64,000 nucleotides of DNA. Origin: an uncultured Pedosphaera sp. GTDB taxonomy: Bacteria; Verrucomicrobiota; Verrucomicrobiia; Limisphaerales; AAA164-E04. The notes beneath the pieces are model-generated. The model was not told where the DNA came from, ran no database searches, and saw only the letters and a program-made list of their open reading frames with translations. Positions within the stretch are counted from its first letter, which is position 1. Every line of letters begins with the position of its first letter. The stretch spans positions 3,121,366-3,185,365 of the forward strand of contig OZ243981.1 in the NCBI GenBank assembly GCA_965214825.1. Direction: 5' to 3'. A program made the position numbers and the translations under genes. Shown here piece after piece: positions 1,702 through 60,197 of this stretch.

Positions 1702-2922
1702 ATGAGCAAACGCGTTCTCATCATCGGCGCCGGTGGCGTCGGCCGCGTCGTCGCACATAAATGCGCCCAAACGCCGGATGTCTTCGGTGCCATCTGCCTG
1801 GCCAGCCGCCGCCGCGAAAAATGCGACGCCATCGCCAAAGAACTCTCCGCGCCCATTCAAACCGCGCGAGTCGATGCCGATCAAACGCCGCAACTGGTTC
1901 AACTCATGCAGCGCTTCCACCCCGACATCGCCATCAACGTAGCCTTGCCCTACCAAGACCTCGCTATCATGGACGCCTGCCTCGAAACCGGCGTCCATTA
2001 CCTCGACACCGCCAACTACGAACCGCGCAACACCGCCAAATTCGAATACCATTGGCAATGGGCCTACCGGGAACACTTCAAAAAACGCGGCCTCACAGCG
2101 CTCTTGGGTTCCGGCTTCGACCCCGGCGTTACCAACGTCTTTTGCGCCTACGCCCAAAAACACCTCTTCCGCCGTATCCGCACCATTGACATCCTCGATT
2201 GCAACGCCGGCGATCATGGCCTCCTCTTCGCCACCAACTTCAACCCCGAAATCAATATCCGCGAAATCACCGCCAACGGACGCTACTGGCAGCAAGGCCA
2301 ATGGCACGAAACCCCGCCCCTGGCCGAATCGCTCCACTTCGATTTTCCCGGAATCGGCCTCCGCAAAGCCTACCTCATGTATCACGAAGAACTCGAATCC
2401 CTCTGCCGCAACATTCCCAACCTGCAACACATCCGCTTCTGGATGACCTTCAGCAAATCCTATCTAACCCACCTGAAAGTCTTCGAAAACATCGGGCTCA
2501 CGCGCATTGACTCCATCGACTTCAACGGGCAACCCGTCATCCCCCTCCAATTCCTCAAAACCCTGCTCCCCGACCCAAGCAGCCTCAGTCCCCACACAAC
2601 CGGGCAAACCTGCATCGGCTGCCTTATCGAAGGCGAACCCAAGATCTCCGCAAGCGCAGAAGCCGAAACGCAAAAACGCATCTTCATTCACAACAACTGT
2701 GATCACCAAGCCTGCTCCCGCGAAGTCCGCTCCCAAGCCGTCTCCTACACTGCCGGCGTCCCGGCAATGATCGGCGCCAAAATGATCCTCCAAGGCCACT
2801 GGAACCACCCCGGCGTCTTCAATCTCGAAGAACTCGACCCCGACCCCTTCATGGCCGCCCTCAACCAACACGGCCTCCCCTGGCACATCCAAGAAACCGG
2901 CCTCAGCCCCCTACCCCGCTAA
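1702..2922 (+). CDS. Carboxynorspermidine/carboxyspermidine dehydrogenase (saccharopine dehydrogenase family)
   Basis: N-terminal Rossmann motif MSKRVLIIGAGGVGRVVAHK. Full-length 406 aa. Paralogous to the partial gene at 1..461 and adjacent to nspC. Confidence 0.85.
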   Translation: MSKRVLIIGAGGVGRVVAHKCAQTPDVFGAICLASRRREKCDAIAKELSAPIQTARVDADQTPQLVQLMQRFHPDIAINVALPYQDLAIMDACLETGVHYLDTANYEPRNTAKFEYHWQWAYREHFKKRGLTALLGSGFDPGVTNVFCAYAQKHLFRRIRTIDILDCNAGDHGLLFATNFNPEINIREITANGRYWQQGQWHETPPLAESLHFDFPGIGLRKAYLMYHEELESLCRNIPNLQHIRFWMTFSKSYLTHLKVFENIGLTRIDSIDFNGQPVIPLQFLKTLLPDPSSLSPHTTGQTCIGCLIEGEPKISASAEAETQKRIFIHNNCDHQACSREVRSQAVSYTAGVPAMIGAKMILQGHWNHPGVFNLEELDPDPFMAALNQHGLPWHIQETGLSPLPR

Positions 2923-4362
2923 GCGCCTCTCCCTCCACCTCAAACTTTTGAAAACATTCAGAAATCATCCGGGAAATCAGAACTCTCGCGCAACACGTTC
3001 TTGATGGATGATTTTTCCCTTTGTGGCTTTTTTTCGTTCCCCTAGATCGCGCTCCAACTTCCTCCGAATTGCGCTTCAATCCATGAATCACAGCATCTCG
3101 AGTTGCCGGACTCCACATGACAATGTGCCCGCAAATAAGATGCCTCGTCTCAGGATGATTAATCATCCAAGTGTCTAACGTTGCTACTCCTTGAAGAGTC
3201 GCTCTGCCGTGTTGCTTAATGGATCTGTTAATTTCAGCACCAATTTGCAATGACTCTGATTCCTCAGTCCGTCTTCGATCATATATCTCCTCAGTAATTT
3301 TAAGGACTTCCTCAACAGTGCCGTCAATTTCCACGTGGAGTGTACTGTTAACAAAATCAGTAAGATTCGCATATGCTTGAAGCCGTGCCTGCTCGCGTGC
3401 TGCTTTGACAGCGAAATTTCTTTTCAATTTTGAGTCTATTCTTGTAACAGCAGGCGACCATTGCCCAAAACTGACAAAAGCCCGATTACCCGCAGTATCG
3501 TGAAAGGTGCGAACGCCGTACACCGTCATATAGCCTTCATCGCCATTACGGGCAATTTTGCGGACTTGCTCACGAATAGATTGTGCAGGATTACCTCCAG
3601 ATGAGCGGGCAACGGTGTGTCCGTGAAAGGCAGCATTAGCCCATTTCCTTAGATTATCCGAACAGATGACAAGCACACCAATATTATCCAAATCTTCAAA
3701 TGTTTTGAGAACTCTCAATCCAGATACGGACTGCATAGCCCCAACCGTTGCGCGTTTGAAAATCTGTTCACGAGCGCTCTCTCTTTTCTTGCGGGGTGAC
3801 ATATCTGAGGAATCAATGCCGTAATCTCGCAATGTTTCATCTAGCTCCGCTCCCTTCAAGGTGAGCATTTTATGGTCAATAGTCTTTTAAAGTGCTTGTA
3901 AAGCATCACCGCGAGGAACTTCTTCATCGAAGGAATTTCTATCTTTCCGAACGAATTCGCGTATAGTATCTGTTGTGATATTGGCCCTCCTCGATACAAC
4001 AAAGTTCCCCTTGGCCTTGGCAAATACTTTCTCAAAAGCAAGAATGCGAGCTTGACCAAACCTGAGATACAGTCTGGGATACTGTGTTCCACGTCTAATA
4101 GGAGCCGTGGCCCAGCCAATATATGTGCCGTTCGGATTGCCCCCCAAAGACCACGCCCTCTTATTTTTTCCTTTTTTCTCTTCTCTAAGTAATTGTCGCG
4201 TTGCTTTTCAATCTTCCCTCCTTGTTCTTCAGCAGAAGGGAAGAGATTTTCTGGATCCTCGAATACGACATCGGGAGGTTTTTCTTCGCTGGTTTGTGCA
4301 AGCAACGGGGCAGCGATGGAGGCTGCGAGTGTGATTAGTGCAATAGTAAATGTAGTCTTCAC
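2903..4362 (-). pseudogene. Secreted protein of unknown function, disrupted by one frameshift and one in-frame TAA
   Basis: The signal peptide MKTTFTIALITLAASIAAPLLAQ is in the frame of 4362. The sensible continuation GGNPNGTYIGWATAP... is in another frame, entered at a G6 run (C6 on the plus strand, 4140-4145). That frame hits TAA at 3887-3889 and then continues in the same frame into the 321-aa ORF 2903..3868. The region is visibly AT-richer. Confidence 0.5.
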
Positions 4363-4413
4363 GTTATGATACAGTAAGTAGTTGTTAATGTTGAAGGTTT
4401 AGGGGGGAAATTG

Positions 4414-5032
4414 TTACCAGCTGACAGCGGCACGTTTGCCGGGTTTGGTGATTTCGCGTTCATCGCTCCAAAAGGCGAGGCCGGTGCGCAGGTCGGTCAG
4501 GGCGAGTTGCAAGGTGTAGGTGGCTTGTCGGGCACGGTCGGCGCGGATGTTTTGCTGGATGATTTTGCCGCCGAGGCTGTAGTCGGGCGCAATCATTTGG
4601 CCTTGTTGCGGCAAGGTGGATTGGTCGAATTCAGCGGCGTTGCGGAGTTCCCGGATGGCGGCTGTGGAGGCGTCTTCTGAGCCGTCGAGTCCGACGGCGG
4701 TTGTGAGGACGAATTTGCCGCTGCGGTTGAGTGCTGTGAGGATTTTTTTGGTTAGGATGTCGGTGTCGATGTGGAGGAGGATGTTGTTTTGGATGCGGCC
4801 GATCATGATGACCATTCGCCTGCTGTCTTCTGCTGTGAGGTCGTCGCGGCTCAGGGGGGATTGGATCATTTCGTCGGCGGCTTTGTTCCAGTCTTGGGGG
4901 TTGATGTCGCCGACGGTAACGACACCTTGGCCGGCGTTCGGGGCCGATGTATGTTGCGGAGGTGGTGCCGCAGCCGCCGGTGAGAAGCACAAGGACGATG
5001 AGGCTGATAGTTGTCAAGAAGGTTTTTTGCAA
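4414..5032 (-). pseudogene. LpoB/COG3417-like outer-membrane lipoprotein, frameshifted just after the lipobox
   Basis: The lipoprotein signal (L)QKTFLTTISLIVLVLLTGGC GTTSATYIGP is in one frame. The LpoB-like body (NAGQGVVTVGDINPQDWNKAADEMIQS...GKFVLT...APDYSLGGKI...LTDLRTGLAFWSDEREITK) is in another. The junction is at GGCCCCGAAC near 4935-4945. Confidence 0.6.
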
Positions 5033-5256
5033 TAAGTATTTAGGGGCTTTGAAGCAAAATGCTTGGCAACGGAACAGACTGTGTTAAATATTTTGGCCAG
5101 GGGAATGAGGTTACTGGACGTGGAAAAAGCAGGATTGCCTGCTGGAGCGTCAATGTAGCCCATAGCTACTTATTCCGAGGTTTTTGTCGGTATCTTCATT
5201 TTATGTCTCTGTAGGGTTGTTTGTTTTTGGTTATCAGTTTGTAAATTATTCGCTGA

Positions 5257-5511
5257 GCAGTAGCCGTCTGCTGGCGGCTTTGGGTTCGGGAGCGATGAGG
5301 GTGATTTCGGCGGTTTCGCCGGGTTGGAGGAGTTGGGAGTGCCAGCGGGAGTGGCCGAGTAGGGGAGTGCTTGGATGTGGTTCGAGAGTTTCGGGCCGAT
5401 GTCGAGGTTGTGGAGGATGGGTTGTGTGGACACGGCTTTCGGTGCAGCGGCGCAGGCGGTCATTCCCAAGGCGAGGGCGAGCAAGCTGAGGTGTTGGGCG
5501 ATGAATTGCAT
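5257..5511 (-). pseudogene. Small lipoprotein (YcfL/DUF1425-like, tentative), apparently frameshifted
   Basis: MQFIAQHLSLLALALGMTAC lipobox at 5511. After about 45 codons the listed frame turns into Pro/Ser/Asn low complexity. A second frame reads LLGHSRWHSQLLQPGETAEITLIAPEPKAASRRLLLSE-stop (stop at 5257-5259). Confidence 0.35.
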
Positions 5512-5515
5512 TGCG

Positions 5516-6775
5516 TTAGAATTCGAATTTGCTGCGGGAGCGGGGTTTTTGTTTCGGCCGTTTGAGTTGGGGCCTTTGCGGCTGGGCAACGCAGCCTTTG
5601 GCGATTTTTTCAAAACCGGTTTCTGCCAGAAAAGTTGCTTGCGAATACTTGAGCCGCACGTGATCAATCTGAATAAGGCCGAGGAACTCGCCGTTGATTT
5701 TGATGGGGGTTCCTCCGGCTGCCAGGTCTTCGATGGTTTCTTCCGGGCCGAAAAGCTCCATAATGTCGCCGGGGTGGAGGAGAAGGCCGCCTTGGTTGAG
5801 CAGGACTTGGCTGGCGCCGCGGGCAGTCAGGACGCGGATGGGGTAGATGTTGCTGAGGATGCCGAGGGCGAATTGCCGGCTGGCGGCGTCGATGACGGCT
5901 GAGGCGGGATCGACGCTTCCTGTGGCCGGCGGCAGGGCGTGGTTGCCGAAGGCGGCAGTGCCTGCTCAGCGGATTTCTTCGCTGGCGGTGTCGAGGATGC
6001 GGTAGCTGATTTTGGCGCTCATTTGAAGGTGGGTTTCGGTTTGTTCGGTGAGTTTGAAGTGTTGTTGGCACTGCCGCAGGGTGAACTCAGAGATGCTGCC
6101 GACGAGGAGGTAATCAGCGCCGAGTTTTTGGTCGAGGCGGCGGTGCTCTGCAACTGAGCTTTTGCCGGCTTCAAAGTTGGCCTGAATGCGGGCGAGTTCG
6201 TTGTCTATCGCGCTGGTGTCTTCTCGTTCCAGGATGCAGAATTTGCGGGATTGCGTCATTTGCTCTATGAGGGCTTGATGCAGTTCGCGCGCGAACTTTT
6301 CTCCTGACCAGCCGAACACTTCGTCGGAATAGCCTTCGGCGTGCAGCTTGAAAGGGAGGATGGCCAGGCTGGGGATGTGGGAGCGGTCAATACCCAGGAT
6401 ATATTTCCCGAAAACTTTTGCTTCAATGCGGCATTTCCATTGGCTGGTAGTGGCGTCCCAATTGTTTTCCAGAATGCGGTAGGACTTGAAGATGCCTGCG
6501 GTCTGGCTTTTGACGTCGCGTCTGAAGATGCTTAAAAAGCTGGCGCCGTCGGACGAGTCCTGCGTGCTGGTGCTGGATTCGCTTTTCGTTTTCAGCATCA
6601 TGCCTCTGACTTGGCTCAGCGCTTCGATTTTGGCGTTCTCAATGGCTTCTTGCTCCGTGTCTCCAAACCCTGGAGCGGTAACTTGGCGGACTGACTGTTG
6701 CCCCAAGGCTGGCTGGGAGCTCCAGAGCGCTGGCGCGGGTCCAGCGAGAATGAGTATGTGGAAAAGCTGCGGCAT
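5516..6775 (-). pseudogene. LPP20-like + CsgG/COG1462-like periplasmic protein interrupted by an in-frame TGA
   Basis: ORF 5966..6775 (SLAILPF...LTQSRKFCILERED...GADYLLVGSISEF...ISYRILDTASEEIR) stops at TGA 5966-5968. The same frame continues without a shift as AGTAAFGNHALPP...VIDAASRQFALGILSNIYPIRVL...GDIMELFGPEE...IKINGEFLGLIQIDHVRLKYSQA to 5516. Confidence 0.6.
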
Positions 6776-6781
6776 GGTCTT

Positions 6782-8252
6782 TTAGCGGAGTGAAGATTTC
6801 GGTTCGTCCAGCCGGAATTGTTGGATGGGCGCTACGGACGCGAGAGGGTGGATAGATTTGAGATAGAGGACGTTGAATTGTCCCGGCTGGACGAGGATTT
6901 GCCGATTAAGGGCGAGGGCTGTGGAACGGACGGTAACTCGGCGGTCTTCCGGCGTGGGGACGCGCGCGATGAGGATTTATTTGGGCAGGGTGGTACAGCT
7001 CCGGGTGTCGGCGATGTTGACAGCTTCTTGAAAGATAGAGCCGGCAATACCTCCCCAATTGCCCAGTTCGTCCTGCAATGTGGATGTGGCGACTGCCTTG
7101 ATGGCGGTGAAGATGAGCGTGCGGATGACGATGGCCGGAAAGCGATTTTTGAAATCGGTAAGCACGATTCTGTCGAAATCCGCTAGTAGAACGGCTTGGC
7201 TGGATTGCCCTTGGGCTTCAGAGCAAAGTCGCTGACGTATTCATCCTCATACACCATATAGGGCAGAGCGGAGGCAACATATGGGACGCTTTCGCTGATG
7301 GTGAAGGTGGGCAATTCGATTTCGATTTGGTCGAACTTGGGCACCATGCCGGTTTCGACGAAGAGGTAGGTAGCGGGGAGTCAAGGGCTGGTTACCGCCT
7401 TCTTGCAGCTGCTTGAGCTGCGCCGTGTCTTCCCGAAGGGCCGCCTCCACCAGCGCAGGCAGGTTGCCGGTGTGTTGGGCCAAGCCTTCGAGGCGTTGGG
7501 TGAAATTCTCGGCGGCACTCAAATCCTCGCTCGAACCTTGGGCCATATGGTAAATCATATCGAGATAGACGACGAAGGGATTAAAGTTAATCCGCGTTGA
7601 GTTCTTTTGCTTCCGCCAGATTGCCTTTCGGTCCCTTCAAGCTGCCCAGGCGGGAGGAGCTTTGGATTTGGGCGAGGATCGGAGCGGCTTTTTCGTCTGC
7701 CAACAGTTGATTTTAGCTAAACTTTTTGCTCTCGGCGTCTTCTTTCGCTTTTTCGAGCCGCCGGGCGTTTTCTTCGAGGGCGAGCCTTTGGCGGTCGTGA
7801 GCGCGGTTTAATTCCACGCGGGCGCCGATGTAATCGCCTATGGCTAAACGGTTCAACGCCATGTAAGTGCTGAGCATGACTTTGTCGTGCGATTGTCCGC
7901 GGTAAGGAAGATTGGCTTGATTGGAAATGGCCGCGCCCGCCTCATTGAGAACGGACACTTCGGCCTTATTTTCGTATTCTTCAACCTTGTTTTCCGCAAT
8001 CTGAAAAACCTCCAGGCTGTGTTTCGGGGAATTGTTGTTTCTGAGAGCGGTTGCGTATTCCAGATTCCAGATGATATGGTCTTTGGCTTTAGCTTTTTCA
8101 GCCAGTTTTCCAAATTCCTCCGCAGCGAGCGCTATTTCCCCATTCTTCCAATGCTGCATTGCGTCGCCGCCTTGTTGCTGATACGTTTTGCAGGCGGGCA
8201 GCAGGACGATGAGTGCGAGAAACGGAATTAAGCGAAAGAGTTTTTGAGTCAC
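6782..8252 (-). pseudogene. Helical/TPR-like lipoprotein (COG3014-like, tentative), heavily degraded
   Basis: Lipobox LIVLLPAC at the start. In-frame TAA at 7713-7715. Frame change near 7590 (..AEAKELNA / INFNPFVVYLDMIYHMAQG). Frame change near 7395 (..LQEGG / YLFVETGMVPKFDQIEIELPTF...). TAG at 7184-7186 plus a shift into LTDFKNRFPAIVIRT...ADTRSCTTLPK. TAA at 6977-6979, then ILIARVPTPEDRRVTV... to the stop at 6782. The stop is 6 nt before the next gene's ATG. Confidence 0.55.
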
Positions 8253-8326
8253 ATTGTCGGAATTTTTTCCCCCTCTTCTAGCGGCAAGAAAGATGTCCGC
8301 AAGAAAAAAATAAAAAATTCAGCAGT

Positions 8327-8659
8327 TTATGTTTGGAGTTTTTGGATTTTGACGGCGGTGCCATAGACGAGAAGTTCGGCGGCGCCAGCCATGACCTGGG
8401 AGGTCACGAAACGAACGTTGATGACGGCATCGGCGCCCAGTTTCTCCGCATGAGCGGTCATGCGCCGGAGGCTTTCGTTGCGGGACTCTGTGAGCATCTC
8501 GGTGTATTCCTTGATCTCGCCGCCCACAAGAGTGCGCAGGCTGGCGATGATGTCTTTGCCTATGTGTTTGGCGCGGATGGTGTTGCCACGAGCAATGCCC
8601 AGGTATTCGGTGATACGGTAGCCTTCGAGTTGGTCGGAGTTGATAATCAACATGGTCAA
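8327..8659 (-). CDS. ybjQ: YbjQ/UPF0145 (DUF74) family protein
   Basis: 110 aa. Family-typical EGYRITEYLGIARGNTIRAKHIGKDI, GGEIKEYTEML..SR, GADAVINVRF. Confidence 0.85.
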   Translation of the reverse strand: MTMLIINSDQLEGYRITEYLGIARGNTIRAKHIGKDIIASLRTLVGGEIKEYTEMLTESRNESLRRMTAHAEKLGADAVINVRFVTSQVMAGAAELLVYGTAVKIQKLQT

Positions 8660-9163: not shown

Positions 9164-9277
9164 GGCGGCGTTGCGGTTCCGGCTTTTGGGGGAGTATCGG
9201 GTTTGGCAAGAGGCTTGTCAAACCGGGACGGGGGATTGTAATTGAGTGGGGTGCGTATTTGGATCGTTTTTTTGGAA

Positions 9278-12747: not shown

Positions 12748-13580
12748 CTATGGATGGCGCCGGATGCGCAGGAAGCTGGCGAAGCGGGGGATGCCTTTGC
12801 GGGTTTTGCCGTAATATTTGTAGGTGACAATGACGCCCACGGGCGGCGGTTGGCGGCGTTCTGCATCTGAGAAGCCGGTGCCGAGTTTGAAGCGGCGTCC
12901 ATCCGGCATTTCCACCAGCAAGGCGCCGAGCATGCCTACATACTTTCCCTTGCCGGGCAAATGGGAGATGACCACAGCTTCGGCGTCTTCGTGCAATTTG
13001 AGTTTTAGCAAGTCGTCCGTGCGTCCGGCTCGGTAGCGCAAATTGCCTTTGCGCAGCATCAACCCTTCGCCACCGGTGGAGACGATGCGGTTGAGCGCGG
13101 CTATGAGTTCGGCGCGGCCGGCAACGCGGAATTGTTTCACCAGGCCGATTTGGGGCGACTCGGCGGTGGCGAAGATTTTTTTGAGGTGCTGCAAACGCCC
13201 GTTGAAGTCGGCGGCATCCGCCGACAGATCGAACACCATGAAGCGAATTTTGCGCCAGGTCGCGTCCTCGGGCGTTTTGCGGCGGACGATGCCCGAAAGC
13301 GTTTCAAAAGCCCCGCGGCCCATCCACAGTTCGCCATCCAAGGGCACGGCGGGAAGCCTTTGGTGAATCAGGCGGGCGGGTTGAAATGCTTGCCTTGCCG
13401 GGAGTAAAGCGCGGTGCCATCCCACTAGGCCCGGATGCCATCGAGCTTCCCGCTCACCCAGTATTCTGCGAGATCGACACCCTCTCGGTAAACCTTGGCC
13501 AGCGATAGCACGGGCGCTTCCTCGGCGAGCGCCGGCCAAGACAGAAGGAGCAGCGGGATGATGCAAAAAAGACGGGACAT
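12748..13580 (-). pseudogene. Minimal ATP-dependent DNA ligase with signal peptide (Lig E type), inactivated
   Basis: MSRLFCIIPLLLLSWPALA signal. Motif I is SGKLDGIRA followed by TAG (13425-13427) where YWDG is expected. TGA (13368-13370) sits where PAWF is expected. A 1-nt loss near 13351 precedes AVPLDGELW. The remainder is intact (FMVFDL, GGEGLMLRK, DDLLKLK, GKGKYVGMLGALLVE, TYKYYG.T..GIPRFASFLRIR). Confidence 0.7.
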
Positions 13581-16732: not shown

Positions 16733-17061
16733 ATCAACATCGCCCGGAAAGAAGGAAAACCCACTCTTGCCTCCCACTCATAACTTATCCCACAACTTAT
16801 AGATAATCCAACGGTTCTACACTATTTTACCGCTTGCTTCTGAACTGGTAATCACCCGATATAAGATTCAACCGAAACGCCGGATGTAAGTCGGTTTGTT
16901 CAGCCGGTAGGTTCAATATAAGAACATGGCGGTGATATAACAAGGGGCTAAAGATGTTGTTGCTGTACTTGAGTATAGAAAACGGTATCTTGCGGAACTG
17001 AACCTGTCTGCGCCGGCGTTTCTGCTCTTGTCATCCGGCGGAGAAACCATATAATCGCTCC

Positions 17062-19252: not shown

Positions 19253-19830
19253 ATGAATCTCAAAGAAGTCATCACCAAAATCAGAACAGAATCCCTCAGC
19301 AACCACGAGCGTGGAGCCTTGTTTGAAAAAATAGCCAAAGTCTTTTTTCAGCAAGACCCGCGCTACAAAGACCGCTTCTCGAAAGTGTGGCAGTGGAACG
19401 AATGGCCCGACCGCGACGGACAAGACACTGGGATTGATCTCGTTGCCAAAGAACGTGAAAGCGGCGACCTGTGGGCCATCCAATGCAAGTTTTACGAACC
19501 GCATCATTACCTCTCCAAAACCGACATCGACTCTTTTCTCGCTGCTTCCGGCAAAAAGCATTTTTCCTACCGTTTGATTGTCTCCACCACTGACAACTGG
19601 TCGGAAAACGCCAGCAAAGCCTTGATCAGACAACACATCCCCTGCCAAAGGATCGGCGTTGCTGAGTTGGCCGAAAGCCCGATTGAATGATCCAACATCT
19701 ACAAACCCGAAAAAACAACAAGAAAAAAGAAAAAGACCCTTCGCCCCCGCTAAAGAAAGGCATTAAAGGACATTGTAAAAAGATTCAAAAACGCGGACAG
19801 GGGCAAGTTGATCATGGCCTGCGGCATTGG
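19253..19830 (+). pseudogene. Remnant of an Mrr-like-nuclease/helicase fusion (restriction-type helicase), with nonsense mutations and a 3' truncation
   Basis: N-terminal Mrr_cat-like domain (GIDLVAKE...LWAIQCKF). In-frame TGA 19688-19690 (IE*SNIY). In-frame TAA 19751-19753 (LRPR*RKAL, where LRPHQ is expected). Then DRGKLIMACGIGN (a degenerate MACGTGKT Walker A), after which similarity ends. Confidence 0.6.
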
Positions 19831-20188
19831 GAACAACTCGGCTTCGCTGTTCGGGGAAGGGCGTGGCGCTGGCCGTTTGCTGCAACAGGGGATCACCGTG
19901 AGACTCGAAACGATGCAGATTATGCGGGGACTTTCGGAAGGAGTGGAATAAATGTGGGGCGGACATTCTTGTCTGCCCGATGCGCCGAAGCACAGGCTGA
20001 AGTTGGATGTCGGTTCCCCTCCGCCCTAACCGCTCTTCGAATCCCGCCGCCCCAGCCACTCTCCGAGTGCCTGCGCCACATTGGCCCCAAATGGCTCGCC
20101 AGTCTGCCTCACATTTTTTGGTTTGCCCCGCAACTTTTCTCGATTTTTGGCGTTTTATCGGCAAGTTTTCGCTGAAATAGGAAACCGA

Positions 20189-27110: not shown

Positions 27111-28292
27111 ATGATCCTCCCCCTCGGACAAGCACCCGCGCCGGCCGGCTCCCCAGCCCAACAAGCGGATTCCCGCCGGCACTTCCTCAAAACCTCCGCT
27201 GCCGGCATCGGCGCCACCATCGCGCTTTCACAAGCCTCTTTCCTCGCCAGCAACGAAGCCACCGACCTTCGCCCCGAAAAGAAACTCGGCTTCGCACTCG
27301 TTGGCCTGGGGTGGTTGGCCACCCATCAGATCGCCCCCGCCCTGGCCAAAACAAAACACTGCCGACTGGCCGGCATCGTGAGCGGCACCCCCGCCAAAAT
27401 CCAATAATGGCAGCAGCAATACAACCTCCCCGCCAAAAACTGCTACTCCTACAAAACCTACAACCAGATCGCGGACAACCCCGAAATCGACATCCTCTAC
27501 ATCCTCCTCCCCAATTCAATGCACGCCGAATACACCATCCGCGCCGCCCGGCTCAGCAAACATGTCCTCTGCGAAAAACCCATGGCCAACTCCGCCGAAG
27601 ACTGCGAAGCCATGATCGCCGCTTGCAACCGGGCCGGGCGAAAACTAGCCATCGGCTACCGCTGCCAATTTGAACCGCACCATCGCCAATGCATCCGCTT
27701 CGCGCAGGAAGAAACCTTTGGAAAAATCAAAATGATCGAAGCCGGATTCGGCTTCAAAATCGGCGACCCGCACCAATGGCGCCTCAAAAAGTCCTACGCC
27801 GGCGGCGGCGCCCTGATGGATGTCGGCATCTACGCCGTCCAAGCCTGCCGCTACCTGGCCGGCGAAGAACCAATCGAAATCTCTGCCACCGAAACCAAAA
27901 CCGACCCCGTCAAATTCAAAGAAATCGATGAATCCATCACCTGGTCGATGAAGTTCCCCAACGGAATCAACACCTACTGCAGCACCACCTACGCCTTCAA
28001 CGGAATCAACCGCTTCACCGCCTGCGGCGACCAAGGCTGGTTCGGACTCAACCCCGGCTACAGCTACAATGGCATCACCGGCGCCACTAGCAAAGGCGAC
28101 GCCATCCAATTCCCCGCCATCGACCAATTCGCCGCTGAAATGGACGACTTCGCCCTGTGCATCCAAAACAACTGCCCCTCCCGCGTCCCCGGCGAAGAAG
28201 GCCTGCGCGACCTCCGCGTCATCGAAGCCATCTACGACTCCATCCGAAACGGAAACACCAGCCACCTCCGCCAAAAGCAACCCCGGCAATAG
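27111..28292 (+). pseudogene. Tat-exported Gfo/Idh/MocA oxidoreductase with a single in-frame TAA at codon 99
   Basis: Twin-arginine signal SRRHFLKTSAAGIGA. GFALVGLG...LAGIVSGTPAKIQ-TAA(27405-27407)-WQQQYNLP...NPEIDILYILLPNSMHAEYTIRAA...KHVLCEKPMA all lie in one frame. Otherwise the gene is full length. Confidence 0.7.
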
Positions 28293-30513: not shown

Positions 30514-31112
30514 ATGAAAGGTGAAGTGAAATTAATAAAGACCGAATTAAACAGCGTCAAAGACCTGTTTCAAAAAGTAGTGCAAATTATTCCGTCGTTC
30601 CATTTGACGGGTCCAAAAATTCTACCCTACGGCCTCAAGCCCCATACTCGTTCGGTTAGTTGGATCGTAGAGCAAGTAATCACACAACAGACAAAATACA
30701 ATGCAAAGCAACTGGACTTACAAAATGTTAATATTGAATTGCCGGATACCTGTTTGCACGATTGCATTATCCAAATGAAGGGGAAAAGTTTTACGTGAAC
30801 ATCAAAATAACCAATGCGGAAGTCAGAGCGAATAAAAACGACATATCCGCGGTGGAGAAACTCTATATGGAATATGCGACAAATCCCAAATACCGTTTAA
30901 TCTACGCTGTCTTCGGATTTACTTTTCGGAATATTCAAATATCTTTTGCAAGAGATTATCTTCACGTCTTCAGCCCTCAATTTCTCCCTATTTACATCAA
31001 TCCTCGAAACGCTAAAATTCAGGCATACTACAAAGCAGAACCGATATACCGATCGAGGGAGGAGTTTTTGCAACTTCTTAGAGGCAAATCAAAAAGCATC
31101 ACTTTAGAATAA
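30514..31112 (+). pseudogene. Putative type II restriction endonuclease, frameshifted at a G4A4 tract
   Basis: ORFs 30514..30798 and 30762..31112 join as ...LPDTCLHDCIIQ.EGEKFYVNIKIT... (a D...N-I-K PD-(D/E)XK-like motif). The shift is at aaggggaaaag (30778-30788). AT-rich. The stop overlaps the methylase start (TAATG). Confidence 0.5.
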
Positions 31113-31885
31113 TGTTCAAAATCTATAACGAAGACTGTATATCCGGCTTGCATCAAGTGCCAGATGCCAGTGTAGACCTGGTTGTCGCCGACCCGCCCTA
31201 TTGCCTCGGCAAAGATTACGGCAACGCTTCAGACCAAATGAAAGCAAGCGACTTTCTGGAATGGACAAAAAAATGGATACAAAAAGTGATTCCCAAAATC
31301 AAACCTGCCGGCTCGCTTTACATATTCACCACCTGGCAGTATTCTCCCGAAATCTTTTGCTATATGAAACAGTATATGACGATGATCAATGAAATTATTT
31401 GGGATAGAAAAGTCCCCAGCATGGGAGGGACAACCCGCAAATTCAGTTCAGTCCATGATAATATCGGCTTTTTTGTTAAACAGAAGAACTACTATTTTGA
31501 CCTTGACGCTGTGCGCATTCCTTACGATCCAGAAACTAAAAAAGCTCGCATTCGCTCCATTTTTGTTGGGAAGAAATGGCTGGAAATTGGATATAATCCA
31601 AAGGACGTGTGGTCAATTTCACGATTGCACCGCATCCATGCCGAAAGGGAAAACCATCCGACGCAAAAGCCGTTGCAGTTAATAGAAAGGATGGTTAAAT
31701 CATCGTGCCCGGAAGGTGGATTAGTATTGGACCCTTTTGCGGGTAGCGGGACAACGATAGAGGCCGCCGTGAAGAACGGGAGACGTGCCATTGGGTTTGA
31801 AATGAATTCGGACTACTGCCAAATTATAGCGAAACGCATGAAACGTTTAGCTCGCCAGCGGCAATTTCCTATCGCTCGACTATAA
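31112..31885 (+). CDS. Beta-class N6-adenine/N4-cytosine DNA methyltransferase (N6_N4_Mtase family)
   Basis: DLVVADPPY (motif IV) near the N-terminus. HPTQKP. C-terminal VLDPFAGSGTT (motif I). This is the circular-permuted beta order. Confidence 0.85.
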   Translation: MFKIYNEDCISGLHQVPDASVDLVVADPPYCLGKDYGNASDQMKASDFLEWTKKWIQKVIPKIKPAGSLYIFTTWQYSPEIFCYMKQYMTMINEIIWDRKVPSMGGTTRKFSSVHDNIGFFVKQKNYYFDLDAVRIPYDPETKKARIRSIFVGKKWLEIGYNPKDVWSISRLHRIHAERENHPTQKPLQLIERMVKSSCPEGGLVLDPFAGSGTTIEAAVKNGRRAIGFEMNSDYCQIIAKRMKRLARQRQFPIARL

Positions 31886-38005: not shown

Positions 38006-38040
38006 TAATACAAGACCGAAGCTTCTTATTCACATCAGAC

Positions 38041-38680: not shown

Positions 38681-38791
38681 TTGCTTGCCTCGCCGGTTCT
38701 CAAGCAGCCGGCCGGCCTGGTTGCGGCCTTCTTCTCAGCGTTTGAATTCGACGAGTCCATACTCATACATAGCAAAAAAAATCGGATGCTG

Positions 38792-39089
38792 CTATCTTGG
38801 TGGAGTATCCTTGTTGGTAGGCGGCAAGTCAAGCAGGAAGGAAAGCTGTTTTGCCAGGTTTTTGATCACTTTTTGAACGAGGTTGTGCGCGTTCTTTTTG
38901 GAGATTCTCAAGGCGCGGCAGAGTCGAGTGAGGCGGTTGCGGATTTTGGTTTTGGCGGCGTAGGTGTGGAAAGAAGCGCCTTGGTCGTGGTCGAGATCGT
39001 AATCGCGGTCGGCGTCCAGGAGGGCGAGGCGGGCTTCTTCGAGGATGTCGTCAGCGAGATGGGGGTAGCGGTGTTTTCATTGCTTTCAT
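38792..39089 (-). pseudogene. Small sigma-70 region-2-like protein, with the start apparently displaced by a 1-nt indel in an A4 run (tentative)
   Basis: A 94-codon open frame without a start codon: KHRYPHLADDILEEARLALLDADRDYDLDHDQGASFHTYAAKTKIRNRLTR... Compare RpoD [51 protein letters not shown] AAA is one base out of frame at 39074-39089. Confidence 0.35.
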
Positions 39090-39246
39090 GGTGTTGCATC
39101 ATCTATTACTTTCACGTATACTGGGCTATCTCCGAAAAGGTTGCGCTGATTTTGGGGAAGCAGAGTAGAAACGCGCGCCGCTGTTAACAAAAAAAGCCGT
39201 GATGATTTATTGCGGGTTTTGATGCCGGTTTGCGAAACGCGGCGAT

Positions 39247-43216: not shown

Positions 43217-43255
43217 CACGCCATCGATTCCCTTTGCTGACCGCACCCGGAAAGG

Positions 43256-46006: not shown

Positions 46007-46557
46007 ATGAACAAAGAGGGTGTCGCCGCGGCTTTCGACCTGCTCATGGAAGCGATTGAGAAAGCCCACCAAGAAATCACAGAACAAATCACAGAAGCCT
46101 CCCAAAACAAGGATTACGAGAAAGTTCAGACTCTCGTCGAGAACGGTAAAAGCCTCTACGCCTTTCGCTCCCGCGTGGTTAACTTGCGCAAAGAATGGCA
46201 AGCCGGCATTGATAAAACCTGGCCGAGAAAAACCAAACGCACTGGCAAATCTTCAATCGCCCCAGCAACCAAACTGCGCGTGTCGTTTCCAAACGGAACG
46301 ACCATCCAAGAGCGTCATGCGGCGGACACCTTTGCCCAGACCATTAGAACGTTGGGATCGACAAAGTCCGCAATTTGGAATTGTCGCAATCCAGGCGCAT
46401 TCCCCTGGTCAACCCCACCGCGCGGGACAAAAAGTATGGACAGCGACAAGTGGACGGATGGTATGTGGAAACCCATTCAAGCACCGAAGACAAGAAGAAG
46501 ACGCTCGACCAAATCGCCAAGGCCCTCGGCGTTCCCATGACAGTTGAAATCATTTGA
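46007..46557 (+). pseudogene. Hypothetical protein (helical N-terminal part, basic linker, small C-terminal domain), apparently frameshifted
   Basis: ORF 46007..46540 becomes Arg/Pro/Trp-rich after ...FAQTIRTLG. The frame of ORF 46375..46557 gives a sensible continuation: IDKVRNLELSQSRRIPLVNPTARDKKYGQRQVDGWYVETHSSTEDKKKTLDQIAKALGVPMTVEII. Confidence 0.4.
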
Positions 46558-46599
46558 CGTCGCTCGCCGAAGATGCAAATTCGGCCGTTTTCCGTTGTC

Positions 46600-48699: not shown

Positions 48700-48748
48700 A
48701 CCGAACAAACTGTTTTTCTTCCATTAAGCTATTATCATCAACTTATTT

Positions 48749-51700
48749 ATGGCCAAAGACAATATCAACAGCAACTTCACCATTAGCCCCAGCCTATTCA
48801 TCGGTCTCGGCACCAATGGCTGGAAAATCCTCGACGATCTTCGCAAACTCATGTTCGAAGAGTTCGGCCGCGCCGGGCTGCACTGTTGCCGCTACCTCGC
48901 TCTGGAAACCGACCGCGACAAAAAACCGAAAGACAACTCCTTCCCCCACGTGCTGGAGTCTTATGAAAAAATCACGCCCCTCTACATCACTGTTCCCAGT
49001 GTGGACGTGGTCAAAAAACGTCTTCAATCGAAAGGTGAAGAATACAAACACATCGATGGCCTGAGAGAATGGCTCGACCCTCAGCTCATCAATTGCGGTA
49101 TCGAAAGATTCATCGCCGGCGCCGGCCATATCAGGCAAGCCGGCCGGCTCTGCCTCTGGGAAAACTGGGAAACCGTTGCCGCCGGCTTGAGAAAATCCAC
49201 CGCGGACATCAAAGACATGGGCAATCATGCCGCAACGGATGCCTTCCTACGCAACAATTATTTTCCGAACAAACACGGCGATATTCAACTCGACCACAGT
49301 TGTATCAATGACAGCCCTAATGTTTACATCTGTGGCACCCTTTGCGGCGGCACTTGTAGTGGCACTTTCATCGACGTGGCCTACTTCGTCAGAAAACTGA
49401 TCGGTGTCACCAACAAAATAGTTATGGTCGGTGCGGGCAGGCCGAAAGTCGTTGGTCTCTTTACTTTCATCAATACCAGCCAACAAACTGATCCGAATAA
49501 AGAAGTCCATGCTGTCAACTCTTGGACCGCTCTGCGCGAGCTAGACTTCTACTACCGAGAAGGCAGCCGCTATCAGGTAAAATTCCCGGACGGCTTGGAA
49601 ATTGATACCCAGGATGACCCTTTCAAACCGCCTATCTGCAATCGCTGACCAACTCCTCCGGAAATACATTTAAAGATGAAGATGCACTCAACCAAATGTG
49701 TGCCATGAACCTCTTTACCGAAGTCGTAACCGACATGGCCGGCGTCAAAGATGCCATCCGTGTCAACTTCGCCAGGAATCCCAGCTACAAGAAACCCAAC
49801 GCCTCTGGCCACCTCCGCACCTTCAGCGCCTTCGGCCTCTCCGCCATCTTGTATCCCCGTTACCGCATCTCTCAAGCCATTAACCGCGCCTTGGCTATCG
49901 ACATGATTGACGCCTGGTGCGGCGATGAAGCTGCCGTCAACAAAAACATGGTAAACGAGGACGTTCTGCGTGATTGGAACAAAATCTGGAACCAAGCCAA
50001 AGGTAGCCTCATGGGTACCGTTGCAGACGCCCGCTGCCAAGAGAATCTTCTCGGCAAAATTGACGCCCTCTTCGACAAAGAATTCTCCTTTTTCAACCGT
50101 GTCGAATGGAACGAGATTGGACCTTATCTCAGTAGCTTCCCCAGGAAAGCCCCTTTGGCGGGCAGTCTGCGCCATCCTCATGGTGACTATTACCGCAAAA
50201 TCACCATTAACGCCGGCACCCTCGTCGTCAACGACTTGAAGGCAGCCATTGAAAAGGTATTTATCGATTACCTGACCGACCACACCATTGCCGAAACCAA
50301 GGTTTACATCCACCGCCTTGTAGAAATATACCAACAAACCCAAAACGGACTCCCGGAAAACCTGCCGGATTCCCCAAAGCTCGTGGACTTCACCCCGGAA
50401 CAAGGTGCCCTTGCCAATCCCTTCGGTCAATGGCTGCGCCGGCGAAGATCTAAATCCCTGCTCAGTTGGTTCGAATACCTATTCAACCTGGCGGGATGGT
50501 TCCTCTTTCATTGGAGATCCCTCAAAGCCGAGAAAGACTATCGCCGCGTAGTCTGGGATACCATACGCCAACGCGCCAAAGACCATCTCGGCAAAATCCG
50601 GAATTATGCCCTCTACCTGGTTCTCGAAAAAAACCTGCAATTCATGAAAGAGCAGGAACGGCGCCTTGAAACCGTGAACGACCGGCTGATGACGTTTAAA
50701 GGCACCTGCGAAACAGAAATGAGCGATCTAATCCACCCTGAAACTGCCAGCAACGTGCTCATCATCTCCCAAGGCAACCCCAACAACCTCGAAGACGATG
50801 TGAAAGAAGGCGTTGCCAAAACCCAGAAAAGCCCCAAATTCTGTCGCAACCAATTCATCGGCACGCAGAATCAGAATCCCGTTGCCCTCATGGAAAACAA
50901 AAGCATTGACGAGCTTGTTTCGCTTGCGGACAAAGTCTTTAACCAGTACAGCCAATCCGTAGCCAAACAATTCAAAATCGGCAAACAAGCCGTCTCTAAC
51001 TTCAAAGACCATATCAAGAATCTTGTCAAAAGCTCCTTCCCCTATGTGGAAACCGTCGGTGAATGGAATTCCCTCCCCCTGTCAGATGTGCCCAACCGCA
51101 TCTTCTGTCCCGACCAAACTGCCGGGAAACAATTGACCGAAAAGGCTAACAATCACCTGGCAGGCGTTGGCGACTACAAAGACGCCACCACAACCCTCGA
51201 CCACTTTGTTTTCTTTTACCGAGAAATCGCCGGCTTAGCCATCACCGACCTTGAAATCCACCTATACGCGAGCCAATGCCTCGAAGCCTCCGAAAAAAAT
51301 CCCAACGCCACTGCCACCAACTTCACTCATCGCGGCGGCGAAAACTACTTCAACCTCCAGCGCAATGAAGACTTCAAACATCTCCGATGGTGGATTGGTG
51401 CCATGCGCTACCTCGCGCCTGACTTATTCAAGGAACGCGGCGAAACCCTCATGCTCAGATATAAAAACGAACACGGCATGAAAGTGGAAATCTCCGTCGA
51501 ACATAAAGGCACTCTCACCAAAGAACTGCGCCAATACCTCGAAAACCACGAAGCCGAAACTCTCATCGACCAATTCCAAGAGAAACTCCGTGAGATCAGC
51601 AAATCCGCCGTCATCCAACGCATGGAAGCTGAAGTGGAAAAACTGGATGAAAACGACAGCAAAGCCCGCAGCAAGCTGGCGAAAAACCACGAAGAAATCC

Positions 51701-51762
51701 TCGCCGAAACCTTCAAAGGAAACGAGGATGACGAGGGTGATTCGCCTGCAGAAACGGTATAA
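48749..51762 (+). pseudogene. Large tubulin/FtsZ-superfamily protein (Tubulin_2-like GTPase domain + ~700-aa helical C-terminal region) split by a -1 frame change at ~49620
   Basis: FIGLGTNG (G-box). YLALETD. IAGAGHIRQAGRL. ICGTLCGGTCSGTFIDVAYF (tubulin signature GGGTGSG variant). NSWTALRELDFY. ORF 48749..49648 and the frame of 49696..51762 (open from 49618) join as ...TQDDPF/QTAYLQSLTNSSGNTF... Confidence 0.65.
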
Positions 51763-51824
51763 GAGGCAACCATTTAAATGCCGAACCGAGGCGGAACTCG
51801 CTGGAGAATGCCTGAACCGGCAGG

Positions 51825-53003: not shown

Positions 53004-53111
53004 AAAGAGATGAGAGACACCGGCGGCAATGGCCGGCAAGTTTGAACGGTTGTAGTTTTGAGTTTCCGAATGCGCTTTCTTTCAAACTCCGGGTTTCGGT
53101 GAGGGGAGCGC

Positions 53112-54803: not shown

Positions 54804-54867
54804 GAGAGTTTCCCGACCGGACAGGAGCTTGCTCTGCCGGTTGGCGAAGCGGGACTGGCCGCTTCTG

Positions 54868-55368
54868 TTAGCCGCCGTTTTGTTGCGGGGCGTCTGCCGC
54901 CATCTTTGCCATGAAGTCCGCCGCGCGTTGCCGGACTTCTTCGGGCGTCAGTTTTTCGACGCGGGAGCTGATTGTCCAAACATGACCGAAGGGGTCGCGA
55001 ACCGTGCCGGAGCGGTCGCCGTAAAATTGATTGGTCACCGGCTTGATTTCCGCTGCGCCGATCTCAAGAGCCTTGGCGAACACTTCGTCCACCTTCTCGA
55101 CGTAAATGTAGAAGGAAACCGGTGTTCCGCCGTATTTTTGGGGACTCTCGAATTGCATGGCCGGGCAGGGGTCTGCCAGCATGATCATGGAGTCTCCGAC
55201 TTTGAGTTCGGCGTGGCCGACGGAGCCGCCAGGACCTTCGATGCGCGCCTGCTCTGTGGCGCCAAACGCTTTCTGATAGAACGCGATGGCCTCGTTCGCG
55301 CTGTCAACAATCAAGTAAGGGGTAATCGTCCCATACTCTTCCGGGATAGGATTGATGGATTCACTCAT
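54868..55368 (-). CDS. VOC/glyoxalase-fold protein (PhnB-like)
   Basis: ITPYLIV.SANEAIAFYQKAFGA......GG.VGHAEL.VGDSMIMLAD, FGHVWTIS. Confidence 0.8.
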   Translation of the reverse strand: MSESINPIPEEYGTITPYLIVDSANEAIAFYQKAFGATEQARIEGPGGSVGHAELKVGDSMIMLADPCPAMQFESPQKYGGTPVSFYIYVEKVDEVFAKALEIGAAEIKPVTNQFYGDRSGTVRDPFGHVWTISSRVEKLTPEEVRQRAADFMAKMAADAPQQNGG

Positions 55369-55443
55369 AAGCTGAAAATCGGCCAGAATAAACGCGCCGC
55401 GATTGAAAGCAAGGCAAAACGGCGGGGGAACGAAACGCGGCGG

Positions 55444-56481
55444 TCATTCTCCGCTTTCCGCCCTGGCGGTTTTGCTGGCGAGCCGTTTTTCCATTCGGCG
55501 AAATCGCTTGATCAAAGCGGGTAATTGTTGCAGGGCCAACAATTGCCGCTTGGCTTCCCGATCGTTCTGAGCGGGTGAGCCGAAAACTTTTTGGTCGGCG
55601 GGGACATCACGCATCACGCCTGATTGGGCGGCAATCGTTGCCCGACTCCCGATATTGATATGCCCGGCAATGCCCACTTGCCCTGCAATGACGGCGCGGT
55701 CGCCTATGGTCGTGCTGCCGGCAATGCCGGTCTGCGCCACGATGAGGCAGTGCTTGCCAATCGCCACATTGTGGGCGATCTGCACCAAGTTATCGATCTT
55801 GGTGCCTTCCCCGATAATCGTCCGGCCGAGGGCGCCCCGGTCCACGGTTACATTCGCACCCAATTCCACATCGTCCTCGATGAGGACGCCGCCAACTTGG
55901 AGAATCTTCCGATGCTTCCCCCCATCGAAAACATAGCCGTAGCCGTCCGAACCGATCACCGAACCGGCATGAATGCGGACTCGCCGCCCCAAAACCGTAT
56001 TCGCATACAAGACGACATTGGGGAACAACCGGCTCTCGGCGCCGATGCGGCAGTTCGCCCCCAGATGATTGCCGCCGCACAGCACGGACTTGGGCCCGAT
56101 CACCACGCCGTGAGCAATCGAACAAGCGGGGCCAATGGACGCGGTCGGATCAATTTGGGCGTCGGGCGACACAACGGCAGAAGCGTGAATCCCGGCAGGA
56201 AAGGTCTCTTCGGGATAAAACCACTCCAGCAACTGCGCGAAAGCGGCGCGCACATTGGCGACTTGAATCAAAACCTTGGCCGAAGGCGCATATACCTTGC
56301 CCACGACAATCGCCGAGGCGCCGCCTTGCAAGGCTGACTGAAAAATCTGCTCATTTTCCGCAAAGGTGATTTGCCCGCGCTGGGCCTCCGGTGCCGGCGC
56401 CGCGCCGGTAATCAGCACTTTGGAATCTCCCAACAAGGTTCCCCGGAGGCGGGAAGCAATGTCACCGGTCGTTAGCTGCAT
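55444..56481 (-). CDS. lpxD: UDP-3-O-acylglucosamine N-acyltransferase
   Basis: Typical N-terminal domain followed by a long left-handed beta-helix of hexapeptide repeats and a C-terminal helix. 345 aa. Confidence 0.9.
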
Positions 56482-58234: not shown

Positions 58235-58427
58235 CCTAAAAAGATAGTCATGCTTAATGGATATCCATAAAAGCCAGTTTGTGTCTGATCTTCTGAAGGC
58301 GGCGAAGGAATCCTTGGGCTTATTTGATACTCACGGGCCAAAGAAGTACTAAAAAACTGAAACCGCTGCACAGTTGCATTGCTGAAAAGATTGCGGTTAT
58401 TCACAAGTTATTGTCATACGCAAGAAT

Positions 58428-58709
58428 ATGTCCTACCGATCGAAGAGTGGAAAAACTCAAAAAATAGAACGAATCTCAAAAGAAAATCTTCTTAAATATG
58501 TAAAGCTCATTCAAGATCAAGATTATCCTCATCGCCCAGACTTAATGGCGATTGTCATTGTGGATTTTCCAGAAAATCAATTGCCGAGACTGGCAGAAGG
58601 CGACAAAGATTTAAATCTATCCCAGTCCACAATAGACAAACTCCGAAACGAAATGTCTTTGGACAATTTTTCAAAAAAATTTCCTGCTCTTTGCCAACTC
58701 AAAAAATAA
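58428..58709 (+). CDS. Hypothetical ORF in an AT-rich island (possibly a fragment of the cognate restriction enzyme)
   Basis: 93-aa ORF directly upstream of the degraded methyltransferase. Short broken ORFs (e.g. from 58259) precede it. No family recognised. Confidence 0.3.
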   Translation: MSYRSKSGKTQKIERISKENLLKYVKLIQDQDYPHRPDLMAIVIVDFPENQLPRLAEGDKDLNLSQSTIDKLRNEMSLDNFSKKFPALCQLKK

Positions 58710-58717
58710 AAACTATC

Positions 58718-60197
58718 ATGGCTAATCAAAAAGAATACGGCGTTGTTTACACTCTTCATTGGTTAACGAGCCTTATTCTTAATGAATCTGGCTTTGATAG
58801 TTCTTATGGAAAGATCATTGACACTGCATGTGGAGAAGGTACATCTCTGGTTGAGTCGGTTAAAAAAATTCTGTCTAAAGGCAATACTCGCAATCTTCGC
58901 AAGCAGTTAGAGCCTCGTGTTTTTGGAATAGACATTGACGATACTGCTGTCCGTAGATGCAAGAGCGGCTATCCACAATTGCGGCGCGGCGTTTTCCATG
59001 TAGATTGGAATATCTTTTGTGCGGATGCTTTGGATATAGATGTTTCCAAATGGTTGTTTGGGCAATTCGACTTTGTGGTCGGAAAACCACCTTATGTTAG
59101 GATTCAGAACTCCGGAGAGCAACTCAGGAAACAGTTGCAGAGGGGATGGTATTTTTGCGCATCTGGTTCTACGAACATTTATATTGCGTTCTTTGGATTA
59201 GCTTTTCGCTTGTTGAAGAATGGCAGAAAACTTGGTTATATAATGCCGAACACATGGCTGAAAACGCAAACAGCGCATGCATGGAGGCAATCTCTTATGA
59301 TTCAAAAACCAGTGATTAAGTTGATTGACTTTGAACATTGACAGTTGTTTGACAAGATCACTACCTATTCCCTTGTTTCCATCTTTCATAAAGGCATGCG
59401 ACATGAATCTGTTTCCCTGTTCAAAGGAAATGATAGAGGTGAATTAACAATTGAAAAAGTCCGAGTTGATGATTTTCACCCGAAGAACTGGGTGTTATGC
59501 TCGCAAACAGAAAGGAAAAATTGTCGGAAATGAAAAAAGACAGAGTGCCTTTATCATCTGTTGCGGACATCCATGTCGGTTTGACGACTCTGGCAGATAA
59601 TTGTTATATTTTCCAAAATGCGGTTCAAGACAATGGTGTAACCAAAATACATCATCCAATCACAAAAAAATTTGTATCTATAGAAAGCGATCTGTTGAAA
59701 CCGATGGTCAAAGCATCCATTCTGAAAAACAACAGAGAAAAACAAAAGCGGCTTATTTTATTTCCATACCGTAAAAACAAGAGGGGAAAACACACAATCA
59801 TAGAAGAAACAGAGCTTGCAGACAAACATCCAAAAACTTACGAGTATCTATTGTCCATTAAAGCTCTATTGGATAGAAGAGATAAAGGAAAGAAAAATCC
59901 GGTTGGATGGTACGCCTTTGGCAGACAGCAAGGCTTGGACTTATCATTTGGAGAAAAAATCCTGACATCGCCGATAAACCTGCATCCGAACTTTATTCTA
60001 TGGAACAAACCGGAATACACATTCTATTCGGGATACTGCGTGAAATCCGACAACCTTCAATGGCTGATTCACCTAATTCAAAGGACATGGAATTTTATAT
60101 TAAAACGGTAAGCCGCCAATATCGAAACCGATGGCAGTCGTTTTCTAAATCGTTCCTTGCAGAGTATCCGGGTTTTGGCACACCTTCACTTTTCTGA
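58718..60197 (+). pseudogene. Eco57I/TaqI-like gamma-class N6-adenine DNA methyltransferase, degraded
   Basis: Motif I IIDTACGEG. Motif IV FDFVVGKPPYV. In-frame TGA at 59339-59341 (IDFEH*QLFDKITTY). Frame change near 59490-59500. Another near 60060-60075 into ...NSKDMEFYIKTVSRQYRNRWQSFSKSFLAEYP. AT-rich. Confidence 0.7.

Follow-up and report, generated by a model that had tools for sequence, protein, structure and literature searches.

The stretch of DNA considered here, a window of 64,000 nucleotides (nt) on contig OZ243981.1 (positions 3,121,366 to 3,185,365 of the forward strand; assembly GCA_965214825.1), comes from an uncultured Pedosphaera sp. of the order Limisphaerales and carries disrupted genes at unusually high local density. 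Its overall guanine-plus-cytosine content (GC) is 56%, with a codon-position GC pattern typical of a moderately GC-rich bacterium. Judged by ThrS, its closest relative is the Limisphaerales metagenome-assembled genome chromosome OZ251460.1 (locus L001), at 86% identity, while the next relatives, all Verrucomicrobiota, share at most 73%. We drew up a map of about 49 genes from Pfam and NCBIfam scans over all long reading frames, and each lesion was placed by comparison with a full-length profile or with an intact homologue: a homologue served as the reference for 11 of the disrupted genes, and Pfam domains only for the Eco57I-like gene (Table 1).

Twelve of the roughly 49 genes (24%) are disrupted, or 8 of 49 (16%) if unambiguous cases alone are counted. 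Together the 12 genes contain 10 in-frame stops (5 TAA, 4 TGA and 1 TAG), about 11 frameshifts and two large deletions, and pseudogenes make up 21% of the window, with intact genes covering 72%. At a baseline pseudogene frequency of 5%, the probability of finding at least eight pseudogenes among 49 genes would be 0.003, and at a baseline of 1% it would be 3e-8. The disrupted genes combine clear homology to full-length intact genes with a lesion that blocks the product, and recoding is excluded (see below). The initial annotation, which had described about a quarter of the genes as disrupted by frameshifts and all three stop codons, is borne out by these counts: 12 of the 13 genes that it listed carry lesions as described. 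Its remark that disruption is almost confined to accessory genes also holds, every affected gene falling in a dispensable module, and profile coverage agrees with its list of intact genes (nspC, nadE, thrS, lpxD, panD, gspE, the secretin, the mechanosensitive channel and the TRAP transporter).

Table 1. Disrupted genes of the window, with one intact partner gene and one tentative case (aa, amino acids; ORF, open reading frame).
Feature	Coordinates	Strand	Lesion or state
DUF6844 lipoprotein pseudogene	2903..4362	-	in-frame TAA 3887-3889
LpoB (TIGR02722-type) gene	4414..5032	-	one 1-nt frame change at GGCCCCGAACGCC (4933-4945)
YcfL/DUF1425 lipoprotein remnant	5246..5511	-	~31 core codons deleted; frame change ~5341-5359
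CsgG-like lipoprotein gene	5516..6775	-	TGA 5966-5968 replacing conserved Trp
COG3014-like lipoprotein pseudogene (480-aa homologue)	6797..8252	-	TAA 7713-7715; TAA 6977-6979
LigE-type periplasmic ATP-dependent DNA ligase pseudogene	12748..13580	-	TAG 13425-13427; TGA 13368-13370; 1-nt deletion within 13342-13355
Mrr_cat_2 nuclease-DEAD/DEAH helicase remnant	19253..19951	+	TGA 19688-19690; TAA 19751-19753; truncation
TAT-signal Gfo/Idh/MocA oxidoreductase	27111..28292	+	TAA 27405-27407 in Rossmann fold
Type II restriction endonuclease (~200 aa)	30514..31112	+	1-nt deletion in AAGGGGAAAAG (30778-30788), G run
N6_N4 DNA methyltransferase, partner of the broken endonuclease	31112..31885	+	intact; profile positions 1-220 of 221
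Sigma-70 region-2-like short ORF	38792..39102	-	ATG in another frame (tentative); weak Pfam Sigma70_r2 match, E = 2e-4
Conserved hypothetical ORF (46007 ORF)	46007..46547	+	1-nt deletion in G run TTGGGATCGAC (46352-46362), frame +2 to +1
Tubulin_2-family gene (~1004 aa)	48749..51762	+	single 1-nt deletion in CCCTTT (49616-49629)
Eco57I/TaqI-type adenine methylase pseudogene, low-GC island	58718..60197	+	TGA 59339-59341; two frame changes

Disrupted modules and their intact counterparts

All five genes of an envelope-lipoprotein operon (2903-8252, minus strand) are broken. Reference sequences for its families (COG3014-like, CsgG-like, YcfL/DUF1425, LpoB and DUF6844) came from a module at locus L082 (480-aa lipoprotein, DUF1425 and LpoB), a 416-aa CsgG-family gene at locus L084 and an intact five-gene operon on plasmid p1 of Azospirillum sp. 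TSH100, which consists of a hypothetical gene, YcfL, LpoB, DUF6844 and a second hypothetical gene. The window clusters the same five families as the intact COG3014-like/YcfL/LpoB operons of the Azospirillum plasmid and of a related verrucomicrobial genome, but has every member inactivated and the CsgG-like gene second instead of last.

In the COG3014-like gene, the two stops are joined by three frame changes (~7583-7649, ~7375 and 7186-7221) and by a Trp-to-Cys change within ADTRSW. The TGA of the CsgG-like gene falls exactly on the Trp of ...TGEIRWADT... in the 416-aa homologue, and homologues of 416 and 402 aa both align in one frame through the stop, for 150 residues further in the 416-aa comparison; a word-indexed homologue search with this ORF returned solely the query itself. 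For the YcfL remnant, residues 7-58 and 90-122 of a 126-aa homologue are matched in two frames whose DNA abuts. Neither this remnant nor the COG3014-like one gave a Pfam match (in stop-masked frames) or an NCBIfam match. The LpoB frame change, located in a C run at GGCCCCGAAC (4933-4945), is read as a +1 insertion: the lipobox signal peptide lies in a different frame from the LpoB domain, and residues 30-204 of homologues of 200-208 aa align in frame -2. Finally, residues 73-414 of the 448-aa Azospirillum DUF6844 protein align in a single frame across the window's TAA, and the DUF6844 signal peptide is found in another frame, with the shift placed between ~4133 and ~4160, where G6 and A runs occur.

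As an operon, these five lipoprotein families are conserved across phyla (window 2903-8252; L088, the Azospirillum plasmid, 3467-8470; L082 7606-10615), and the annotations of those loci describe no function for the module as a whole. A related 3.31-Mb genome has a second LpoB copy (L084 9474-10456) of 151 aa that has no signal peptide and adjoins a resolvase and an ISL3 transposase. Its alignment begins at the same residue as the in-frame LpoB part of the window (window 4941), and it looks like an independent N-terminal truncation.

The stops in the LigE gene sit at the Tyr of KLDGIRAYW (TAG) and at the Trp of PxWF (TGA). Repaired at its three sites, LigE aligns without gaps to PDB 4D05 (E = 2e-77) and matches positions 14-281 of the 283 in profile NF006592. 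All three disabling lesions lie within ~90 nt, and the other 230 codons are well conserved. Motif I (13425-13450) reads SGKLDG instead of the usual SEKLDG, a missense change beside the catalytic lysine. In the Gfo/Idh/MocA gene, the residue aligned at the TAA is T or I, and the remainder of the gene aligns to 5A02 at E = 1e-100.

Three further disrupted genes belong to restriction-modification (RM) systems. The Mrr-helicase remnant retains ~215 residues, corresponding to the first 13% of a 1613-aa Variovorax homologue, and ~1400 codons (~4.2 kb) are missing before gspE; within the remnant, which has no NCBIfam match, the TGA lies on the Trp of SPIDW and the Walker A motif GTGKT reads GIGNN. 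The two ORFs of the type II endonuclease jointly align end to end with the 202-aa protein P0154; this gene has a weak SwaI-like match and 63% identity to 202-aa proteins, and after repair it had no match among plasmids. The frame changes of the Eco57I-like methylase gene lie at ~59515-59518 and ~60075-60078, the second junction being bridged by the TaqI_C domain, and its catalytic NPPY reads KPPY (59075-59095).

The usual fate of RM systems is for the endonuclease to die beside a surviving methylase. The window shares several features with such decay into orphan methylases and remnants: a frameshifted endonuclease with an intact methylase, an Mrr-helicase cut to 13% of its length and an Eco57I-type methylase with multiple lesions. 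However, RM decay covers only 3 of the 12 disrupted genes in the window, and the others are native-like in composition, with GC at third codon positions (GC3) of 0.58-0.77.

Two disrupted genes, the 46007 ORF and the tubulin-like gene, are part of a conserved module found in three subdivision-3/Limisphaerales genomes (window 46007-54803; L001 1-5046; L089 333-9654), which contains a VWA-PKD protein, a ~1000-aa Tubulin_2-family protein, a second VWA protein and a long coiled-coil protein, with a small ORF upstream in the window and in L001. The reference for the lesion in the 46007 ORF was its L001 orthologue, an intact 210-aa protein; for the tubulin-like gene, four intact homologues of ~1000 aa were used, and another subdivision-3 genome has this gene as a single ORF within the same VWA/coiled-coil module. 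The module is fast-evolving, with 50-64% identity where that of ThrS is 86%, and in L001 the 46007-like ORF is separated from the VWA-PKD gene by an additional ORF of 580 aa. The fusion of one distant homologue (P0026) to TIR and AAA domains hints at a role in conflict or defense.

The remaining gene listed as disrupted in the initial annotation, the sigma-like ORF, is a tentative case: its ATG lies in another frame, and the Pfam match that identifies the gene is weak.

Low-GC islands (0.41-0.50 versus 0.56 overall) occur at 30500-31900, 37200-39200 and 58300-60200, and also at 2900-4400. They contain RM genes, the Eco57I-type remnant, three small unannotatable ORFs and the sigma-r2-like ORF beside thrS, and probably represent horizontally acquired DNA. 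Four of the disrupted genes lie in these islands and the remainder have native-like composition. Pfam scans of the window detected no transposase, integrase or insertion sequence (IS) element.

Several nonsense codons had been attributed in the initial annotation to particular single substitutions, and these proposals fared differently. The TGA codons of the CsgG-like, LigE and helicase genes all fall on a Trp of the homologues, in agreement with TGG-to-TGA changes, and the position of the LigE TAG fits the change from TAY at an expected Tyr. The proposed CAA-to-TAA change in the helicase remnant finds no such backing, as the Gln assignment is ambiguous in the alignment. The argument that most of the nonsense changes run from GC to AT is empty: given the codon usage of the window, 64% of all the substitutions that could create a stop codon are already GC>AT (3% are AT>GC). 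Nor did the suggested check for an AT-biased substitution spectrum reveal one: core genes show no shift toward AT when compared with the sister genome L001 (ThrS GC3 0.69 in the window versus 0.64; GFO2 0.76 versus 0.78), and ThrS changes polarized with outgroups (35:10 versus 42:20) do not clearly separate the two lineages.

Probable module-wise decay and possible genome reduction

We interpret the disrupted genes as true pseudogenes, produced by ordinary spontaneous mutation in genes that were no longer needed, and place the probability of this reading at about 0.85. The mutations in question would comprise nonsense substitutions, deletions, and slippage indels of 1 nt at short runs. After a unit had lost its first member, selection on the rest would lapse and further lesions would gather, so that decay would proceed module by module. 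The units hit are the envelope-lipoprotein operon, the endonuclease (with its methylase surviving), the Mrr-helicase restriction enzyme and the Eco57I-type methylase, and likewise the periplasmic LigE, the TAT-exported sugar oxidoreductase and two genes of the tubulin-like/VWA module. As the cause of decay in the window, we infer relaxed selection within modules, with neutral decay following it.

The distribution and nature of the lesions are consistent with this interpretation. Lesions cluster, with up to five in one gene and with all five genes of the lipoprotein operon affected, and some changes go beyond consensus error: the loss of ~4.2 kb from the helicase gene and of ~31 codons from YcfL, and the 10 nonsense substitutions. 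Older pseudogenes are marked by degenerate catalytic motifs (KPPY for NPPY, GIGNN for GTGKT and SGKLDG for SEKLDG). States of decay range from one lesion in conserved sequence (the Gfo/Idh/MocA and tubulin-like genes) to five lesions plus motif loss (the COG3014-like, Eco57I-like and helicase genes), and this spread indicates that the inactivations were distributed over time, in keeping with a process still under way and not with a single event. The ongoing gene inactivation that had been proposed for this DNA is supported, in the sense of genuine lesions of differing ages in dispensable modules.

Alternatively, the whole genome could be in early reductive evolution following host restriction or a niche shift; a pseudogene load of ~15-25% would then extend genome-wide, the window being representative. 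We consider this possible but doubtful. Free-living cultured Limisphaera carry 24-29 pseudogenes per ~2,950 genes, or ~1% (PMC13608581), and the local density in the window (16-24%) is more than 10 times higher. The functional coding density of only 72% approaches the 69% of Ca. Didemnitutus mandela, a verrucomicrobial tunicate symbiont, and the functions lost (restriction, envelope lipoproteins, periplasmic ligase) resemble symbiont losses such as those of this species; pseudogene density in the window is comparable to that of such transitional symbionts (PMC5698493). The presence of decay states of several ages fits early reduction too, as does a chromosome of 3.83 Mb compared with 4.52 Mb in the closest relative. 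Furthermore, Sodalis glossinidius, Mycobacterium leprae and Ca. Didemnitutus mandela resemble the window in that nonsense codons, small indels and deletions have recently inactivated many of their genes, and envelope and defense functions are affected here as in host-restricted genomes.

In other respects, the window departs from recently host-restricted genomes: it spans 64 kb only, it contains no transposase or IS element, its core genes show no AT shift (GC3 of ThrS and GFO2 is not shifted below that of the sister genome, and the polarized ThrS ratios do not set the two lineages clearly apart), it comes from an organism with no known host, and its genes for biosynthesis, secretion and transport are intact. 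Four of the disrupted genes lie in low-GC islands, where the decay of acquired DNA is normal for free-living bacteria. Literature searches by accession found nothing, and a host-restricted or niche-shifted cause is not readable from one window. A Limisphaerales lineage that has only just entered reductive evolution, such as a cobiont recently restricted to a host, in which ~15-25% of genes would be pseudogenes genome-wide with GC and IS load still unchanged, is a tentative proposal.

Consensus errors and functional interruptions as alternative readings

Read from the assembly, 8 of the 12 disrupted genes appear to be unambiguous pseudogenes: what inactivates them is nonsense codons, deletions, truncation or more than one lesion. 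The other four (LpoB, the endonuclease, the 46007 ORF and the tubulin-like gene) carry a single 1-nt indel at a short homopolymer within otherwise well-conserved sequence. That several frameshifts sit at short homopolymers had been recognized in the initial annotation, and in these four genes they do so at G/C runs or at CCCTTT. The four frameshifts could be consensus errors but are probably real, because they are placed in dead or co-affected modules and the internal control is clean.

This internal control consists of 44.3 kb of intact coding sequence, in which 59 homopolymers of at least 6 nt (two of 9 nt), 159 of 5 nt and 2201 of 3-4 nt contain no frameshift. If frameshift errors arose at a uniform rate, taken at its 95% upper bound, less than one would be expected across all disrupted genes together. 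None of the 21 point lesions falls in the ten longest intact genes (21.9 kb), an outcome with P = 7e-5 if lesions were random, and the window does not display the pattern of homopolymer artefacts, in which 1-nt indels rise with run length and are blind to gene function. An external control came from a related verrucomicrobial organism, for which two assemblies of the same 20.6-kb locus (L081, ENA ERZ25072662 contig_110; L082, ERZ25072258 ctg8077_498.58x_l) differ by 17 single-base indels and no substitutions. Every one of these indels falls in a short run of G or C, and genes that are interrupted in one assembly are uninterrupted in the other. Indels at short homopolymers must therefore be counted among the genuine errors of comparable long-read metagenome assemblies, unlike substitutions. 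Indirectly, the controls support the presence of the lesions in the organism's DNA for eight genes.

We think it unlikely that these four genes are whole in the organism and owe their frameshifts to long-read consensus errors. Each has one 1-nt indel at a G/C run of 3-5 nt (once CCCTTT), conserved motifs and an end-to-end homologue alignment, and the indels that separate L081 from L082 are of the same kind and also split genes. Such an origin sits poorly, however, with the absence of similar indels from 2201 runs of 3-4 nt and 218 runs of at least 5 nt in the intact coding sequence, and with the expectation of less than one error. Moreover, the four neighbors of LpoB in its operon are inactive beyond doubt, the tubulin-like gene shares its module with the 46007 ORF, and the loss of the endonuclease beside its surviving methylase follows the usual course of RM systems. 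The earlier suspicion of consensus errors at homopolymers is well placed for these four genes and inapplicable to the other eight. In general, the window resembles long-read homopolymer artefacts in having ORF-splitting 1-nt indels at short, mostly G/C runs, but adds substitutions, deletions and truncation, and such indels are absent elsewhere, including from the 59 runs of at least 6 nt.

An origin of every lesion in sequencing or assembly artefacts is very improbable. Several frameshifts do lie at homopolymers, and the source is probably a metagenome-derived single-contig assembly, but errors of the indel type do not account for the 10 nonsense substitutions, the deletions of ~4.2 kb and ~95 nt or the decayed motifs. 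Between comparable assemblies there are no differences by substitution, and 46 kb of other genes contain no lesions.

Least credible of all is that the interruptions are functional, through recoding of TGA as Trp, phase variation or programmed frameshifting. TGA does stand in place of Trp at three sites, and some homopolymer shifts affect RM genes, where phase variation is known. We rejected recoding because TGA ends more of the intact genes than any other stop codon (16 of 37, versus 14 for TAA and 7 for TAG) and TAA and TAG interrupt genes too; phase variation because the runs of 3-6 nt are far below the length of phase-variable tracts; and programmed frameshifting because relatives encode single uninterrupted ORFs.

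Some points weigh against our reading of the window as ordinary pseudogene decay. A single 64-kb window cannot show a genome-wide process, and the label "accessory" was assigned post hoc. The lesions are known from assembled sequence, and L081 and L082 demonstrate that the relevant class of indel error exists in comparable assemblies. The four genes with one 1-nt indel at a 3-5-nt run (G/C, once CCCTTT) otherwise look functional.

Gene annotation and significance

Several further features bear on the annotation of the window. Long antisense ORFs at 9218-11182 (minus), 16948-18504 (minus) and 54802-55524 (plus) overlap an MscK-type channel gene, a sulfatase gene and a glyoxalase-family gene, respectively, and are by-products of high GC3 rather than genes; the last of them is spurious, the real gene being the glyoxalase-family gene on the minus strand. 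An apparent gap at 28293-28841 contains a DUF192 gene. The TAXI-TRAP transporter genes, found between thrS and the Gfo/Idh/MocA gene (41105-44323), are absent from the matching position in L001 (6495-10001), which has a DNA methylase instead. For the disrupted regions themselves, automated annotation will list many split or short "hypothetical" ORFs, which should be merged and flagged as pseudogenes.

The decay of accessory genes is a well-known phenomenon, and it is the local density that is unusually high here. If this density does not extend to the whole genome, the window represents routine accessory-gene decay. If it does, the genome would be a useful model of early-stage genome erosion in a phylum that offers few examples of it, and would show that the first modules lost are restriction systems, envelope lipoproteins, the periplasmic ligase and the tubulin-like/VWA module. 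Should the lineage indeed be at the onset of reduction, it would provide an unusually early and clean snapshot of this process in the Verrucomicrobiota.

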